Below are positions 22,417-28,013 of a stretch of 32,000 bases of DNA, in pieces. Position 1 is the stretch's first letter; each line of letters opens with the position of its first letter. The position numbers and the translations under genes are program-made. This DNA comes from Ruminococcus albus 7 = DSM 20455. GTDB lineage: Bacteria; Bacillota; Clostridia; Oscillospirales; Ruminococcaceae. The stretch covers positions 2,940,001 through 2,972,000 of the forward strand of contig NC_014833.1 of NCBI RefSeq assembly GCF_000179635.2. The letters are read 5' to 3'. Under the pieces are notes generated by a model. That model was not told the origin of the DNA, did no database searches, and saw nothing but the letters and a program-made list of their open reading frames with translations.

Positions 22417-22445
22417 TTGACAAATGAAAAAAAATATGCTAAAAT
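22417..22445 (+). promoter_or_regulatory. Consensus sigma-A promoter for the tRNA-Ser pair
   Basis: TTGACA-17 nt-TAAAAT, about 30 nt upstream of the first tRNA. Confidence 0.65.
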
Positions 22446-22474: not shown

Positions 22475-22563
22475 GGACAGGTGTCCGAGTGGTTTAAGGA
22501 GCCGGTCTTGAAAACCGGTGATACGGCAACGTACCGTGGGTTCGAATCCCACCCTGTCCGCCA
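22475..22563 (+). tRNA. tRNA-Ser (anticodon UGA), CCA encoded
   Basis: Acceptor GGACAGG/CCTGTCC, anticodon arm CCGGT-CTTGAAA-ACCGG, long variable arm, T-arm GTGGGTTCGAATCCCAC, then G-CCA. Confidence 0.9.
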
Positions 22564-22610: not shown

Positions 22611-22697
22611 TGCGGATTTACCCAAGTGGTGAAGGGGCTCCCCTGCTAAGGGAGTAGGTCTCGAAAGGGGCGCGAGGGTTCAAATCCCTCAATCCGC
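22611..22697 (+). tRNA. tRNA-Ser (anticodon GCU), no encoded CCA
   Basis: Acceptor GCGGATT/AATCCGC, anticodon arm CTCCC-CTGCTAA-GGGAG, long variable arm, T-arm GAGGGTTCAAATCCCTC. Confidence 0.85.
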
Positions 22698-22702
22698 GTA
22701 TG

Positions 22703-22733
22703 ACCTCCGTAAGCTTAGGCTTACGGAGGTTTT
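22703..22733 (+). terminator. Intrinsic terminator after the tRNA pair
   Basis: CCTCCGTAAGC-TTAG-GCTTACGGAGG followed by TTTTT. Confidence 0.85.
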
Positions 22734-22792
22734 TGTTATATTCTACACTCTTTGCACAATACACACCCTTCAAATTTGTTGAAAGCGTCCTG

Positions 22793-22821
22793 TTGACAAA
22801 AGCGGTATATCGTGCTATAAT
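22793..22821 (+). promoter_or_regulatory. Consensus sigma-A promoter for the pncA/Prs-like/NAMPT-like operon
   Basis: TTGACA-17 nt-TGc-TATAAT (extended -10). A 6-1-6 palindrome TAACTAtTAGTTA (22841-22853) lies in the leader. Confidence 0.7.
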
Positions 22822-22879
22822 GATAACAACAAAAAGATAATAACTATTAGTTACTATGAATCAAAAGGACGGTATCATT

Positions 22880-23428
22880 ATGAAGATCTTAGTTGCCATT
22901 GACCTGCAGAAAGACTTTACAAACGGCGTTCTCGGTAATGCCGAGTGCGATGCGGCTGCCGATAAGGCGGCAAAAAGGATAGCTGCCTTCCGCAAGGAAC
23001 AGCCCGATGTCCCCGTCGTGTTCACGCTTGATACTCACACCGAGGATTATATGAATACTCAGGAGGGAAAAAACTTACCTGTTGTACACTGTATCCGCGG
23101 CACCGATGGCTGGAAGCTTGACCCCCGTATCGAAGCTGTAAGAAAGGACAATGATATCCTAGTGGAAAAGCCTGCCTTCGGTTCTGCCGAACTTCCCGAA
23201 GTGCTGAAAAATCTGGCTGACGGAAAAGATATCGAGCAGATAGAATTCATCGGAGTATGCACCGATATCTGCGTCATCTCCAATGCCATGATAGTCAAGG
23301 CAGCCTTCCCCGAGGTACCCATAGTGATAACCGAGGAATGCTGCGCAGGTGTAACTCCCGAAAGCCACGAGAATGCACTCAGCGCTATGGCTGTATGCCA
23401 GATGAAGATAGAAAGGAATGATACCTGA
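22880..23428 (+). CDS. pncA: Isochorismatase-fold cysteine hydrolase, B. subtilis PncA-type nicotinamidase-like
   Basis: VAIDLQKDF (Asp), VEKPAFG (Lys) and GVCTDICV (Cys) form the triad. The DTHTEDY...HCIRGTDG metal-site region parallels B. subtilis PncA. Start at MKILVAID. Confidence 0.75.
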   Translation: MKILVAIDLQKDFTNGVLGNAECDAAADKAAKRIAAFRKEQPDVPVVFTLDTHTEDYMNTQEGKNLPVVHCIRGTDGWKLDPRIEAVRKDNDILVEKPAFGSAELPEVLKNLADGKDIEQIEFIGVCTDICVISNAMIVKAAFPEVPIVITEECCAGVTPESHENALSAMAVCQMKIERNDT

Positions 23429-24246
23429 TGCTCAGATACCGTATAGATGACGGAGAGTATATGGTGCCGAATATCGAAAACTACCCCGACGGCACCATGA
23501 AGATAGACCTTTCCCACGCTGATGTATGCAGCCGTGTGGACATAAGCTGGCACTATGAAAATGAACTTGAACAGATGCAGCTGTACTATATGGTAAGCAA
23601 CCTTAAAGAGCGTTTCCCGAAAGCAGTATTCACGCTGTTCATGCCCTATCTGCCAAACGCACGTATGGACAGGGTACACGCTGATACCGAAGTCTTCACA
23701 CTGAAATATTTCTGCCGTTTCCTAAATTCCATGGGCTTTGATAAGGTAACTGTACTCGATGTTCATTCAAGCGTGGGTGCGGCACTTATCGACAGGGTGG
23801 TGAACCTCTCCCCGAAGGAGTATATACTGAAAGCCTTGGAAATGGCAGGATTCAGCTTTGAAGATGACTGTCTGTTCTTCCCCGATGAGGGTTCTATGAA
23901 AAGGTATTCCTCCATGTTCGATGCCAGACACGTCAGCTTCGGCATAAAAAAGCGTGACTGGTCAACAGGAAAGATACTCGGCCTTGAAGTCGAAGGCGAC
24001 TCCCCTGCAGGCAAAAATATATTCATAATAGATGATATATGTGCTTACGGCGGAACTGTCTACTACTCCGCACAGAAGCTGAAAGAGCTGGGCTGTAAGG
24101 ATATAAATGTATTTTTCAGCCACTGTGAAGATTCAATAGCAAAGGGCAAGCTGTTTGAATGCGGCATGATAAAGAATATCTATACCACCGATTCTATATG
24201 CACCCTGCCCGATAACGATATACTCAAAAAAATCAGTCTTGACTGA
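23428..24246 (+). CDS. Short PRPP-synthetase-fold (ribose-phosphate pyrophosphokinase-like) protein, 272 aa; possible ADPR-pyrophosphate synthetase (Adps-like)
   Basis: FMPYLPNARMDR, VTVLDVHS, FFPDEGSMKRY and IFIIDDICAYGGT match Prs motifs. The protein is about 40 aa shorter than housekeeping Prs. Its ATG shares one nucleotide with the pncA stop (TGATG). Confidence 0.75.
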   Translation: MLRYRIDDGEYMVPNIENYPDGTMKIDLSHADVCSRVDISWHYENELEQMQLYYMVSNLKERFPKAVFTLFMPYLPNARMDRVHADTEVFTLKYFCRFLNSMGFDKVTVLDVHSSVGAALIDRVVNLSPKEYILKALEMAGFSFEDDCLFFPDEGSMKRYSSMFDARHVSFGIKKRDWSTGKILGLEVEGDSPAGKNIFIIDDICAYGGTVYYSAQKLKELGCKDINVFFSHCEDSIAKGKLFECGMIKNIYTTDSICTLPDNDILKKISLD

Positions 24247-24264
24247 ACTGAAAGAAGGATCACT

Positions 24265-25785
24265 ATGAAAGGTATAAACGCAGCACTGATGTGCGATTTC
24301 TATAAGATAGTCCACAGGGATATGATAAATCAGAAGATGACAAAGTCCATGTCTTACTACACCCCCCGTATGAGCCGTGTAAAGCGCTGGGATAAGGTGG
24401 TAATGTTCGGTTTGCAGATGTTCTGCAAGACCTGGCTCCTCGACTACTTCAACGAGAATTTCTTTGAAGTCCCCGAGGAGGAGATAGTTGCCGATTATCA
24501 GCGCGTACTGGATAATTCCTTCGGTAAGGGCATATACAATACATCTTCTATTCGCGAACTTCACAGACTGGGATATCTCCCACTGGAGATAATCGCACTC
24601 CCCGAGGGTACTCTTGTACCGATACACGTCCCCATGTTCGGAATAACCAATACCCACCCCGATTTCGCATGGCTGCCGCAGGCACTTGAAAGCCTTATCT
24701 CTGCTGAAATGTGGTATCCGCAGATAACTGCTACCGTGGGCAAGACCTACCGCGATATCGTTGACAAGTACTACGCACTCACCTGCGAGGACGATATCCC
24801 GCGTGCCAAGGCACTGGGTTCTTTCGATTTCCGCGGTGACCAGGGACTTGATGCCGCGCTTAAAGCTGCCGCAGGCTGGTGTATGTCTTTCGTGAATACC
24901 GCTACCGTACCTGCTATCCCCTACCTTGAAAAGATGTTCGGCGCAGACTGTACAAAGGAAGCTGTAGCATACGGCGCTGTCAGCACAGAGCACTTTGTTA
25001 TGTGCTCAAACTTCGCAGTTGACGGCGACGAGGAAACCTTCCTCAGAAAAATGCTTACAGAGCTCTACCCAAACACCAGCTTCTCCGCCGTTCTCGATTC
25101 CTATGACTACTGGAACGTCATCGATAACATACTGCCAAAACTCCACAATGAGATAATGGCGCACAACGGCTGTATGCTGATGAGAGGCGATTCGGGCGAC
25201 TGCGTTGAGGTAGTTACAAAAACAGTTTTCAAACTGTGGGAACAGTTCGGCGGAACAGTCAACAGCAAGGGCTACAAGGTGCTTGACCCTCACGTAAAGG
25301 CGATATACGGTGACAGCATAACTGTACAGCGCTGCGAGCAGATATACGAGATACTCATGCAGAACGGCTTTGCCTGCTCAAACGTTGCCCTCGGTGTAGG
25401 TTCCTTCTCTATGCACTGTATCGAGGAGACCGAGGATATCACCGTCACAGCCGATGACGGTCAGAAGTTCACAGGCAGACACACAGTCCTCAAGCCCTTC
25501 ACCCGCGATACCTTCTCCAGCTGCATAAAAGCCTGCTATGCCGAGATAGACGGCAAGGAGTATCCCATATTCAAAGACCCGAAAGAGGGCGGTTTCAAAA
25601 AGAGCCAGAAAGGTCTGTGCTATGTTTACCGCGATGACAACGGTGAACTCGCCTATAAAGACGGCTATGTAGGCAGCACTATCCCCGAAGGGAACCTGCT
25701 TGAAACAGTATTCAAAGACGGCAGACTTGTCAGGGAGTATACACTCAGTGATATCAGGAACAGACTTAACAACAACGCATTCTGA
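24265..25785 (+). CDS. NAMPT/NadV-family phosphoribosyltransferase-like protein with divergent motifs (506 aa)
   Basis: CDFYKIVH, LPLEIIALPEG, WYPQITAT, STEH, LDSYDYWN, LMRGDSGD, NSKGYKVL, IYGDS and LGVGS all parallel human NAMPT by eye. Confidence 0.8.
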   Translation: MKGINAALMCDFYKIVHRDMINQKMTKSMSYYTPRMSRVKRWDKVVMFGLQMFCKTWLLDYFNENFFEVPEEEIVADYQRVLDNSFGKGIYNTSSIRELHRLGYLPLEIIALPEGTLVPIHVPMFGITNTHPDFAWLPQALESLISAEMWYPQITATVGKTYRDIVDKYYALTCEDDIPRAKALGSFDFRGDQGLDAALKAAAGWCMSFVNTATVPAIPYLEKMFGADCTKEAVAYGAVSTEHFVMCSNFAVDGDEETFLRKMLTELYPNTSFSAVLDSYDYWNVIDNILPKLHNEIMAHNGCMLMRGDSGDCVEVVTKTVFKLWEQFGGTVNSKGYKVLDPHVKAIYGDSITVQRCEQIYEILMQNGFACSNVALGVGSFSMHCIEETEDITVTADDGQKFTGRHTVLKPFTRDTFSSCIKACYAEIDGKEYPIFKDPKEGGFKKSQKGLCYVYRDDNGELAYKDGYVGSTIPEGNLLETVFKDGRLVREYTLSDIRNRLNNNAF

Positions 25786-25793
25786 AATATAAT

Positions 25794-25832
25794 GGAGCAG
25801 CTGCGTCATCAAACGCAGCTGCTCCCTTTTTT
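25794..25832 (+). terminator. Intrinsic terminator after the NAMPT-like gene (could also serve the convergent PLD gene)
   Basis: 13-bp stem GGAGCAGCTGCGT/ACGCAGCTGCTCC followed by CTTTTTT. Confidence 0.85.
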
Positions 25833-25855: not shown

Positions 25856-27193
25856 TTACATAGACCCTTCAAGATTCGCCATCATGGCAGCCCTTATCTC
25901 CTCAGCAGGAGAAAGTGGTATGATATTGTCCTCCGTCACAAGCACACACTCATCAAGGGTGTCAAGGATATCCGCCTTGATATCAGCTATACACTTAACA
26001 TCCGTCAGTACAGCACCGCATTCAAAGTCGCGGTAAAAGCTGCGGCTGTTGAGATTTATGCTGCCCACCGTAGCAACGCGGTCATCACTGACAAACACCT
26101 TTGAATGTATGAATCCGGGAGTATACCTGTACAGCTTCACCCCCGAAAGCACCAGCCTTTCATAATGGGTACGCGCCAGTATCTCCATGTACAGCTTATC
26201 GGGTATCCCGGGTACTATCAGTATCACCTCAACGCCCCGTTCAGCTGCCGAACATATAGCATCCTCCACCTCATCATCTATGTTCAGGTACGGTGCTGTT
26301 ATGTACAGATAGTCCTCCGCACCGTTCATTATCTCAAGGTATATGTCCCGCGCCGCATCCTCATTGTCAAAGGGAGATTCCCCGTAGGGCATAACATAGC
26401 CCTCCGCCGCTGCAGGCTCTGTCTTATCTAGATATTCACCGCATACATCAAGTTCAGCCCCACGGTCCCACTGCTCAAAGAAAAGCTCCGTACAGCTTCT
26501 CACAGCATCGCCGCGCATCTGTATCGCCGCATCCTTCCACCGTCCGTATGGCGATGTCACATTAATGTACTCGTCCGAGATATTCACTCCGCCCATGAAT
26601 GCTGTCTTTCCGTCTATAACAGTCAGCTTGCGGTGATCTCGCTCATTTATGCTCACACGGTCAGGCTCGCGGTAAAGGCGGCAGTCTATGCCATACGACC
26701 GCATTTCCTCGCAGAACGCATCGTTCTGCTGTAAGCCGTCACATATCATCCTTACCTCAACTCCTGCATCCATGCGTTCGCAAAGCACATCGAGTATACC
26801 ATCCAGCATCTCACCGTCCTTCACGATGAAGTACTCCATAAATATGAAGTCCTCCGCCGCGGCAAGCTCCCTGATAAGCGCCTCATAGAACCGCTCCCCC
26901 GTCGGATAATAGCTGACCTCGGTATTGGTATAAACAGGATAGCGGCTGTCGGTCAGAAGGTAGAATCTCTCACCCGCCTTTTCCAGTATCTCCTGTTCCT
27001 GCGTCAGATGTCTCGGCATATCCGCTCTGACGGACACCTCATTTGTCACGGTCACAGCCGGGCTTTCATCCCTCACCGATGATACCTCGCCGCCGCCAGA
27101 AGATATCTCCTCTTTTATACTGCTTTTACGGACCGTTCCGCAGGCGCACAGCGCTGCCGCCGCTGTTATCACTGCCGCCATTCTCTTTTTCAT
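25856..27193 (-). CDS. Phospholipase D / cardiolipin synthase-family protein (two HKD motifs) with a lipoprotein signal
   Basis: HRKLTVIDGKTAFMGGVNISDEY and HSKVFVSDDRVATVGSINLNSRS. N-terminus MKKRMAAVITAAAALCACG behind a GAGGAGG RBS. Confidence 0.8.
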   Translation of the reverse strand: MKKRMAAVITAAAALCACGTVRKSSIKEEISSGGGEVSSVRDESPAVTVTNEVSVRADMPRHLTQEQEILEKAGERFYLLTDSRYPVYTNTEVSYYPTGERFYEALIRELAAAEDFIFMEYFIVKDGEMLDGILDVLCERMDAGVEVRMICDGLQQNDAFCEEMRSYGIDCRLYREPDRVSINERDHRKLTVIDGKTAFMGGVNISDEYINVTSPYGRWKDAAIQMRGDAVRSCTELFFEQWDRGAELDVCGEYLDKTEPAAAEGYVMPYGESPFDNEDAARDIYLEIMNGAEDYLYITAPYLNIDDEVEDAICSAAERGVEVILIVPGIPDKLYMEILARTHYERLVLSGVKLYRYTPGFIHSKVFVSDDRVATVGSINLNSRSFYRDFECGAVLTDVKCIADIKADILDTLDECVLVTEDNIIPLSPAEEIRAAMMANLEGSM

Positions 27194-28013
27194 ATCCTGA
27201 CACCTCCTCAGCCCGATCATTCTCCGCTTTGTTCCTCACCCTTGTACGGTACTCAGTAGGTCTTTCCCCCGTCACCTTTCTAAACTGTCTTACAAAATGT
27301 ATATCCGATGAATACCCGCACATCTGCGCTATCCTGCTCACACTGTGTTCCGTGGATGCAAGCAGATACCCTGCCCTTTCGGTACGCGCATTTATAACAT
27401 CGTTCATGGGAGTTACCCCGAAAAGCTTTTTATAGCTGTGCTGGAAAGATGAACGGCTCATGTTCATTTCATGGGCAAGCCCCTCGATAGTCCAGTTGTA
27501 TGCAGGGTCATTGTATATTTTCGCCCTTACCACCGACATCTTCTCATAGCTGCTGCCCATACCCTTATCAGCCGTCCTGTGAAGCTTCTCGCTCAGCTTC
27601 ATAAAAAACAGCTTCACAAGCAGGTCGCAGGTATCTGTACAGTAAAGTCCCCCGGAATAATGCTCGTGGCACATCATGCTGACAAATACCGTCAGCTCCG
27701 AAAGACTGCCAAGCTTTACAGGCGTATCAAATGGTATGTCCAGTTCTCTCAGCAGCCGCTCATCCTCAGTATTTTCAGGCATAAAATGGAACCAGTCATT
27801 CCCGAACACTCCGCCGTCCGAACGGTAGTACTGAGGAGTTCCCCTGCTGTACAGCATTACGGTGCCCGCCTCTGTACCGATCTCGCCCTTATATGTCACA
27901 AACACCGCCGGAGTTTTGACCAGCAGCATCAGCCAGTCCCCCGAGCCCTCAGGTCGTTCTATCGAAAAATCCGCATCGTGCCGATGATCGCAGCCAACAT
28001 TTATTATGCGCAC
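27126..28013 (-). CDS. AraC-family transcriptional regulator
   Basis: C-terminal dual HTH (IEGLAHEMNMSRSSFQHSYKKLFG...ISRIAQMCGYSSDIHFVRQFRKVTGERPTEYR). Probable GTG start: the second GTG (28013) sits 7 nt after GGAGG, and the track start is 28019. The 3' tail overlaps the PLD gene start. Confidence 0.85.
   Translation of the reverse strand: MRIINVGCDHRHDADFSIERPEGSGDWLMLLVKTPAVFVTYKGEIGTEAGTVMLYSRGTPQYYRSDGGVFGNDWFHFMPENTEDERLLRELDIPFDTPVKLGSLSELTVFVSMMCHEHYSGGLYCTDTCDLLVKLFFMKLSEKLHRTADKGMGSSYEKMSVVRAKIYNDPAYNWTIEGLAHEMNMSRSSFQHSYKKLFGVTPMNDVINARTERAGYLLASTEHSVSRIAQMCGYSSDIHFVRQFRKVTGERPTEYRTRVRNKAENDRAEEVSGYEKENGGSDNSGGSAVRLRNGP

Follow-up and report, generated by a model that had tools for sequence, protein, structure and literature searches.

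We analyzed a 32,000-nucleotide stretch of the Ruminococcus albus 7 chromosome (NC_014833.1, positions 2,940,001 to 2,972,000; hereafter the window), in which three tightly packed, co-directional genes encode a PncA-like hydrolase, a Prs-like protein, and a NAMPT-like transferase. The last two resemble Adps and Namat, the enzymes of the NAD+ (nicotinamide adenine dinucleotide) reconstitution pathway NARP1. We propose that the operon probably encodes a deamidated form of NARP1, which would rebuild NAD+ via nicotinic acid. The proposal draws on homology, residue patterns, clade structure, and gene linkage, and all enzymatic activities named below are inferred from these.

The proposed route would run in four steps. 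The PncA-like hydrolase would convert the nicotinamide released by NAD+ cleavage to nicotinate, and the Prs-like protein would use ATP to convert ADP-ribose, the other cleavage product, to ADP-ribose pyrophosphate (ADPR-PP). The transferase, which retains the catalytic core of Namat and some of its adenine clamp around a rebuilt pyridine pocket, would then join nicotinate and ADPR-PP directly into nicotinic acid adenine dinucleotide (NaAD), bypassing both a mononucleotide intermediate and an adenylyltransferase. Last, NadE would amidate NaAD to NAD+. The cassettes of most relatives continue with nadE, whereas R. albus and its clade would have to encode this enzyme elsewhere in the genome.

The Prs-like and NAMPT-like proteins group with Adps and Namat

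The Prs-like protein, which has the PRPS fold, matched phrog_619 with 220 bits, the same PHROG that holds the validated Adps proteins of phages SPbetaL1 and ICP1. We built a hidden Markov model (HMM) solely from Adps proteins that partner canonical Namat. On this model, SPbetaL1 Adps scored 290, ICP1 Adps 256, and the window protein 233 bits, compared to 131 bits for Escherichia coli Prs. Both the window protein and SPbetaL1 Adps fell below every NCBIfam Prs cut-off; the window protein reached 92 bits on TIGR01251 (Prs), for which the cut-off is 113, and stayed far under the cut-offs of all equivalog models. Six residues named as important in the structural study of Adps (R87, H121, D161, K185, D212, and D213 in ICP1 numbering; PMC13586617) were traced using the ICP1 Adps sequence and found to be invariant in a four-sequence alignment that includes the window protein. 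They are kept in 154 to 155 of the 155 Adps partners of the transferase class to which the window protein belongs (see below) and are identical between the Adps partners of both transferase classes.

A preliminary description of this DNA, made from the sequence alone, had pointed to the 272-residue length of the Prs-like protein, its motifs PYLPNARMDR, LDVHS, and IIDDICAYGGT, and a missing N-terminal segment. All of this held when the protein was compared to E. coli Prs, whose N-terminal helix it lacks. We further found that its loop, DDICAYGGT, is without the "DT" of the ribose-5-phosphate loop (DDxxDTxGT) of phosphoribosyl pyrophosphate (PRPP) synthetases and resembles DDLSSFGGT of SPbetaL1 Adps. 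The protein also stops shortly beyond TTDSI, and nothing in it matches residues ~285 to 315 of E. coli Prs, which form the C-terminal alpha11-alpha12 module; the loss of this module is a defining signature of the Adps family (PMC13586617). The protein is predicted to be an ADP-ribose pyrophosphokinase (Adps) that makes ADPR-PP.

The transferase, a Namat-like type II phosphoribosyltransferase, aligned with Namat (9W5X) at 374 bits, with Haemophilus ducreyi NadV (HdNadV) at 280 bits, and with human NAMPT at 158 bits. Its AlphaFold2 model has a predicted local distance difference test score (pLDDT) of 93.7, and the top Foldseek matches of that model were the SPbetaL1 Namat structures 9W5X and 9W5W (template modeling score of 0.90/0.93, with 9W5X as the top hit). 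The profile-HMM and structural comparisons that had been suggested in the preliminary description placed the Prs-like protein nearer to Adps than to Prs and the NAMPT-like protein nearer to Namat than to NadV or NAMPT. Together, the profile, sequence, and fold comparisons bear out the earlier idea of an Adps/Namat-like pair in a bacterial chromosome and support the assignment of both proteins to the NARP1 lineage rather than to housekeeping Prs/NadV.

To follow individual residues, we used an alignment of 157 sequences, consisting of 150 representatives obtained by clustering at 50%, three closer homologs, the window protein, a gut-phage homolog, and two reference Namats; 156 of them were assigned to classes. 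The autophosphorylated histidine is H243 in the motif STEHFVM of the window protein (H245 in ATEHSVM of SPbetaL1 Namat; H247 in AAEHST of human NAMPT), and R307 and D309 match R306 and D308 of Namat. The catalytic histidine is present in 154 of the 157 rows, with the other three being gaps in fragmentary sequences, and H245, R306, and D308 (Namat numbering) occur in every near-full-length sequence. T398 (serine in a minority), R399, and D400 are found in nearly all sequences, R40 is kept in most, and position 392 is aromatic in 53 of the 56 members of the window's class. Overall, the catalytic residues, R40, the aromatic residue at 392, and TRD are retained in both classes of transferase.

The clamp itself differs. 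In the window protein, GSF, TRD, and R40 are kept, and F381 is the position-3 aromatic residue, but an insertion makes the clamp 26 residues longer than its Namat equivalent, GSFTYQYNTRD. About 25 extra residues after the GVGS motif had been noticed before; by alignment, we count about 26 to 29 between GVGSFSM and TRD, and 17 of the 26 are specific to the R. albus clade, which has the longest clamp insertion of its class. The insertion is modeled as an ordered beta-hairpin (strands 385 to 395 and 401 to 411; pLDDT of about 91 to 93).

Large insertions were also seen elsewhere in the family. Three members of the canonical Namat class (P0157, P0190, and P0193) carry insertions of ~285 residues placed exactly between F392 and T398 of the clamp, many representatives are 570 to 1114 amino acids long, and several phage genes were matched in two pieces by tblastn. 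The ~285-residue insertions could be inteins or inserted domains.

The nicotinamide pocket is replaced throughout a separate class of transferases

In SPbetaL1 Namat, D215 hydrogen-bonds nicotinamide, and its replacement by alanine results in 8-fold less NAD+ production (PMC12774641). The equivalent human residue, D219, binds the amide, while the nicotinate-specific human NaPRTase has a serine at this position (PMC4442680). In human NAMPT, D219 forms one hydrogen-bonded network with H191 and G217 in the wall of the nicotinamide tunnel (PMC4186856). We found that the Namat motif GTDT reads NTAT in the window protein, so that the nicotinamide-binding aspartate is lost. From Namat to the window protein, the pocket changes are H187 to G185, D188 to S186, S190 to D188, H207 to W205, G213 to N211, and D215 to A213.

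These results change the grounds on which the transferase can be called divergent. The main argument of the preliminary description was the loss of the catalytic histidine, which proved to be a misalignment: H243 is in place, and W205 replaces a different histidine, H207 of SPbetaL1. A supposed shortening of HDFGYRG to FDFRG likewise disappeared, as GSFDFRG aligns without gaps to Namat HDFSMRG. The departure that had been overlooked is the change of GTDT to NTAT. The rigorous alignment that had been proposed as a check restored the histidine but not the canonical pocket and clamp motifs, as D215, H187, G213, and A242 are all replaced.

Similar changes were found in 56 of the 156 classed sequences (in Namat numbering). 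All 99 canonical members carry D215 together with A242, while 54 of the 56 members of the window's class combine alanine, serine, or valine at 215 with S242. Position 187 is histidine in 97 of the 99 canonical sequences and glycine, serine, or cysteine in the window's class; position 213 is glycine in 98 of 99, as opposed to mostly asparagine or lysine (with asparagine, lysine, serine, and proline all seen); and position 207 is mostly histidine, as opposed to tryptophan or phenylalanine. Clamp spacing also differs, with 6 to 7 residues in canonical sequences and 15 to 16 in most of the window's class. In a neighbor-joining tree with 50 bootstraps, from which the class-defining columns had been masked, the window's class formed one clean split (48 of 48 members, with no intruders) that was recovered exactly in 82% of the bootstraps. 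Thus, the A/S215 and S242 changes define a monophyletic Namat-like subfamily, as judged from these alignments. The two-residue marker (D215/A242 versus A/S215/S242) offers an annotation rule for thousands of genes of gut bacteria and phages now called NadV or NAPRT.

The window's class is linked to PncA and NadE

The PncA-like protein matched the Pfam family Isochorismatase with 100 bits, and its best relative in the Protein Data Bank is the Pyrococcus horikoshii nicotinamidase 1ILW (43 bits). The columns of the catalytic triad align to 1ILW, with aspartate in AIDLQ, lysine in EKPAF, and cysteine in TDICV, and so do those of the metal site (D-x-H...H, present as LDTH...HC). This isochorismatase-family hydrolase is predicted from its sequence to be a nicotinamidase.

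The pairing of a nicotinamidase with a transferase of the nicotinamide-using type had been regarded as odd, with the two enzymes competing for one substrate. We compared gene neighborhoods in three sets of 80 loci each. Two sets represent the window's class, one viral and one bacterial (one genome per species), and the third comprises viral canonical Namat loci as a control. A215/S242 was found in all 160 window-class loci and D215/A242 in all 80 control loci. An Adps gene lay nearby in 155 of 160 window-class and 74 of 80 canonical loci. In contrast, a PncA-like gene was present in 151 of 160 window-class but in 0 of 80 canonical loci, and NadE in 149 of 160 as compared to 0 of 80, with the control having been searched by both BLAST and HMM. 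The corresponding Fisher P values are about 5e-54 for PncA and 4e-52 for NadE, although the loci are related and the trials are therefore not independent.

The cassette is compact. The median distance between the Adps-like and Namat-like genes is 16 bp in bacteria and 99 bp in viruses, and the order PncA-Adps-transferase-NadE is found in 65 of the 80 bacterial loci, where NadE starts a median of 18 bp downstream. The NadE encoded in the cassette scores above the cut-off of the curated nadE model. Unbiased clustering of neighbors recovered NrtR in 52 of 80 bacterial cassettes and a Macro domain gene in 41 of 80 viral ones; among the recurrent neighbors of the class loci, there was no adenylyltransferase family. 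ADP-ribose releases NrtR from DNA (PMC2330246). On one gut phage contig (GenBank MT835544.1), Adps-like, transferase, Macro, NadE, and PncA-like genes occur together, and relatives are encoded in 391 stretches of 185,579 species-representative GTDB genomes. Divergent members of the class, including two with a short, unmodified clamp (P0152 and P0212), retain these partners. Thus, the linkage goes with the switch in the pocket rather than with the insertion in the clamp.

Because the nicotinamide-binding aspartate is lost and the clade is tied to PncA and NadE, the PncA-like enzyme would most likely supply the substrate nicotinate. The co-location noted in the preliminary description therefore stands, while the reading of the two enzymes as competitors does not: the paradox disappears if PncA feeds nicotinate to the transferase. 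With pncA at the start and nadE at the end of the cassette bracketing an Adps/Namat-like pair in which the nicotinamide network has been replaced, the deamidated route would be the simplest interpretation.

For the class as a whole, we lean, somewhat less firmly, toward a large, unrecognized sister family of NARP1 that occurs in Clostridia of the gut and rumen as well as in large gut phages. Its members would use a four-enzyme deamidated route, in which the conversion of nicotinate and ADPR-PP to NaAD and pyrophosphate would be a new reaction. ADP-ribose would switch the route on through NrtR in bacteria, and in phages the route would be combined with Macro and NADAR functions.

Several further features of the cassettes were observed. 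The phage Macro gene often lies between the transferase and NadE genes, and some phage NadE proteins carry an N-terminal NADAR fusion (viral loci L004 to L083, e.g., L075:11362-11943 and L083:11479-12663). Both types of domain act on derivatives of ADP-ribose and might supply the pathway with ADP-ribose. AT-rich palindromes of 21 bp, such as TTATTATCAAAATGATAATAA or ATATAATCAAAATGATTATAT, occur 30 to 90 bp upstream of the cassette (pncA) at eight loci (L144, L159, L163, L150, L155, L101, L103, and L127); these loci encode NrtR, and the palindromes are candidate NrtR boxes. In Pseudoruminococcus massiliensis (L146:11491-13437), the NadE open reading frame (ORF) spans 648 amino acids compared to the usual ~250 and could represent a fusion or a glutamine-dependent form.

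Alternative readings of the operon

A number of observations weigh against a deamidated NARP1. The curated nicotinamidase model NF008623 gave 31 bits where its cut-off is 174, leaving the general Isochorismatase domain of Pfam as the only one passed, and the PncA assignment thus combines weak scores with an alignment of the catalytic and metal-binding residues. The loci are phylogenetically related, so that their counts are not independent, and one divergent A215/S242 member (P0238, on the phage-like 13-kb contig L247) has no detectable Adps, PncA, or NadE nearby. In R. albus, the operon has no adjacent nadE or nrtR, the genes that carry the argument in its relatives. The strict Namat clamp signature, GSX-phi-X-phi-X-phi-TRD, is absent from the window transferase, with at least nine additional residues breaking up the clamp in most class members and 26 doing so in R. 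albus; adenine recognition, and hence the use of ADPR-PP, could therefore be altered. Moreover, canonical Namat can also use PRPP, so that nicotinic acid mononucleotide (NaMN) could be formed as well.

These last points lead to the main rival, a Preiss-Handler-type route in which the Prs-like protein makes PRPP, the NAMPT-like protein makes NaMN, and host NadD and NadE finish the synthesis, with the pair replacing PncB. Operons of the type pncA-pncB-nadE under NrtR control do exist in Pseudomonas and Clostridium acetobutylicum (PMC2330246), the pocket switch predicts nicotinate but is silent on the ribosyl donor, an insertion breaks up the adenine clamp, and NCBIfam names the transferase a nicotinate phosphoribosyltransferase (405.9 bits for a cut-off of 405). 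We nevertheless consider this reading rather unlikely. The Prs-like protein groups with validated Adps, lacks the "DT" loop and regulatory modules of PRPP synthetases, and has the same key residues as the Adps partners of canonical Namat. The AMP-contacting residues F392, R40, and TRD are retained, and phages that carry PncA, NadE, and often Macro never show a recurrent NadD-type gene. Membership of the Adps/Namat lineage, an intact catalytic core, and the fact that bacterial NARP1 works in Paenibacillus foliorum (PMC12774641) would also fit an ordinary NARP1, in which nicotinamide and ADPR-PP are joined directly into NAD+, and PncA and NadE form a parallel salvage branch or remove excess nicotinamide. 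This is an unlikely reading, as the nicotinamide-binding aspartate and its network are replaced clade-wide, the D215A change lowers Namat activity, and a co-transcribed nicotinamidase would destroy the substrate of the transferase. A generic parallel branch also would not explain why PncA and NadE are tied to the window's class only (about 94% versus 0%).

The pocket is remodeled at no fewer than four positions, and the residues at 213 and 207 vary. Together with the weak PncA assignment, this could instead indicate that the transferase takes another pyridine or base, or that the isochorismatase-family enzyme acts on another amide, so that a noncanonical dinucleotide would be made or recycled. 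We give this little credence: NadE, which passes its curated model, is a highly specific partner that defines an end point via NaAD, and the nicotinamidase catalytic and metal-site columns align. Hardly credible is the idea that the R. albus copy is a decaying remnant, with its nadE and nrtR gone and its transferase disrupted by an insertion. The R. albus clade is the only one without adjacent NadE and NrtR, and it does carry the extra 17-residue insertion. However, eight genomes, diverged to 72 to 85% nucleotide identity, all retain the three ORFs in intact form along with the promoter, Shine-Dalgarno (SD) sequence, and start; every catalytic residue is retained; and the insertion is modeled as an ordered hairpin within a confidently predicted structure.

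If the deamidated route is correct, the reconstitution of NAD+ from ADP-ribose would not be restricted to nicotinamide and would include a second, nicotinate branch with its own specificity and an undescribed reaction. Such a route would explain why a nicotinamidase accompanies a "nicotinamide" transferase and would link the ADP-ribose-sensing NrtR to a pathway that consumes ADP-ribose. It would also add a means of counter-defense against NAD+-depleting immunity in hosts that quickly deamidate nicotinamide.

Operon architecture and genomic setting

Features of the operon and its surroundings are listed in Table 1. The preliminary description of three packed genes between a near-perfect promoter and a strong terminator was accurate, including the single base (23428) shared by the PncA-like stop and the Adps-like start and the absence of a nicotinamide mononucleotide (NMN) adenylyltransferase gene from the operon. 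The ORFs were also correct, except for the start of the PncA-like gene. In an upstream alignment of eight R. albus-clade genomes, the ATG at 22880 and its SD sequence are kept, while the ATG at 22856 is not, which makes 22880 the true start. Both promoter hexamers are invariant in all eight aligned loci of the clade. The gap between the Adps-like and Namat-like genes is 18 nucleotides.

Table 1. Features of the operon and adjacent tRNA genes (positions within the window).
Feature	Position	Strand	Remarks
tRNA-Ser genes (two), upstream of the operon	22475-22563 and 22611-22699		Anticodons TGA and GCT
Promoter, sigma-70 type	22793-22821	+	TTGACA, 17-nucleotide spacer with TG upstream of TATAAT; 12/12 consensus
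Leader palindrome, candidate operator	22837-22857	+	21 bp, imperfect; ATAATAACTAtTAGTTACTAT, core TAACTnnnAGTTA
PncA-like gene	22880-23428	+	182 amino acids; mechanical ORF 22856-23428, 190 amino acids
Adps-like (Prs-like) gene	23428-24246	+	272 amino acids
Namat-like (NAMPT-like) transferase gene	24265-25785	+	506 amino acids
Pyridine-pocket segment G185-T214	24817-24906	+	GSFDFRG...AGWCMSFVNTAT
S240-T241-E242-H243	24982-24993	+	Namat A242 to S240; catalytic H243 retained
Clamp-helix region G379-D415	25399-25509	+	GSFSMHCIEE...KPFTRD; 26-residue insertion versus Namat GSFTYQYNTRD
Intrinsic terminator	25794-25825	+	13-bp stem (9 G-C pairs), 6-nucleotide loop, T-run

The leader palindrome, located between the -10 box and the SD sequence, is an inverted repeat of 10 + 10 nucleotides with 90% complementarity, and its core is kept across the R. 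albus clade. We considered it as an NrtR operator but rejected this assignment, as it does not fit the published NrtR core GT-N7-AC and the window has no NrtR gene. An Rfam scan of the window returned only the two tRNAs and no riboswitch or further RNA.

The tRNA-Ser pair forms a separate transcription unit with its own promoter (22417-22445, 11/12 consensus) and its own terminator (22702-22731). Its proximity to the operon had suggested a genomic island. The adjacency is real in the window, but it is not kept in the other R. albus-clade genomes, where none of the loci has a tRNA within 10 kb. As reported before, no repeat of the tRNA 3' end was seen, and we discarded tRNA-Ser as an integration site. 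In the other genomes of the clade (L084 to L089 and L154), the only nucleotide similarity to the window lies at positions 22740 to 25792, from the promoter to the operon stop, and their 10-kb flanks on either side have nothing in common with the 32-kb window. No integrase or repeats were seen at the operon. As judged by sequence comparison, it looks like a relocating module, a discrete unit that occupies differing and unrelated neighborhoods. Among bacterial clades, this is the only one that clearly lacks adjacent NadE and NrtR.

The remaining genes of the window encode glutamine synthetase, Tex, glycoside hydrolases (GH67, GH5, GH16, and GH25), a GGDEF protein, an RsmE-type methyltransferase, an AraC regulator, and a phospholipase D (PLD)-family protein. 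The last, a 454-residue protein with two PLD domains (25856-27220, minus strand), converges on the operon terminator. It matches the DrmC models of PADLOC through its generic PLD domain only, and the window has no other DISARM component. A prophage or defense-island setting was rejected, given that the neighbors are housekeeping and carbohydrate genes, and the 32-kb window contains neither prophage genes nor NADase defense genes. The R. albus module is chromosomal and not part of a prophage, and it would act as a salvage operon.

Comparison with known systems

Chromosomal NARP1 in bacteria has already been reported (bioRxiv 10.1101/2024.02.11.579819), and the P. foliorum system has been shown to work (PMC12774641). 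In the literature searched, we found no paper that joins NARP1 or Namat with nicotinamidase (PncA), NadE, or nicotinate. Bacterial NARP1 is therefore known, while for the deamidated, nicotinate-based route we found no published description.

Like NARP2 (NadV with NMNAT/Nudix) and NARP3 (PnuC with NadR), which are phage-borne, the window's class is predicted to restore NAD+. However, these two pathways employ other enzymes, proceed through NMN and nicotinamide riboside, and use neither ADPR-PP nor nicotinate nor NadE. NARP3 was considered as a possible earlier description of the present system and set aside as unrelated. The prs-nadV operons that NrtR regulates in Shewanella, Acinetobacter, and Chromobacterium (Rodionov et al. 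2008; PMC2330246) share with the NrtR-containing cassettes a dedicated Prs paralog beside a NadV-like gene, an ADP-ribose-responsive repressor, and a chromosomal location but, in contrast to the window's class, have no pncA or nadE.

The layout also recalls Preiss-Handler operons (pncA-pncB-(nadD)-nadE, often NrtR controlled), with PncA first, NadE last, and NrtR present in most bacterial relatives. It differs in having an Adps-like/Namat-like pair in place of PncB and NadD. The predicted route would skip NaMN and recycle ADP-ribose, so that no PRPP and ATP would be spent for adenylylation.

The closest system is NARP1, as described in phages such as SPbetaL1, Bas63, and ICP1 and in some bacteria (P. 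foliorum). Adjacent Adps-like and Namat-like genes in the same order, the same folds and catalytic residues, and the same Adps truncations are common to both; Namat is the closest solved structure, and the predicted logic, in which a dinucleotide is rebuilt from ADP-ribose via ADPR-PP, is alike. By its sequence, the operon belongs to the Adps/Namat lineage but departs from Namat in two defining features, namely, the pocket for nicotinamide and the signature of the clamp: across the window's class, the H187/G213/D215 network and A242 are replaced, and in most members an insertion interrupts the clamp motif. Furthermore, the window's class is linked to PncA and NadE, whereas canonical Namat never is in the 80-locus control, and its predicted substrate is nicotinate, with NaAD instead of NAD+ as the product.

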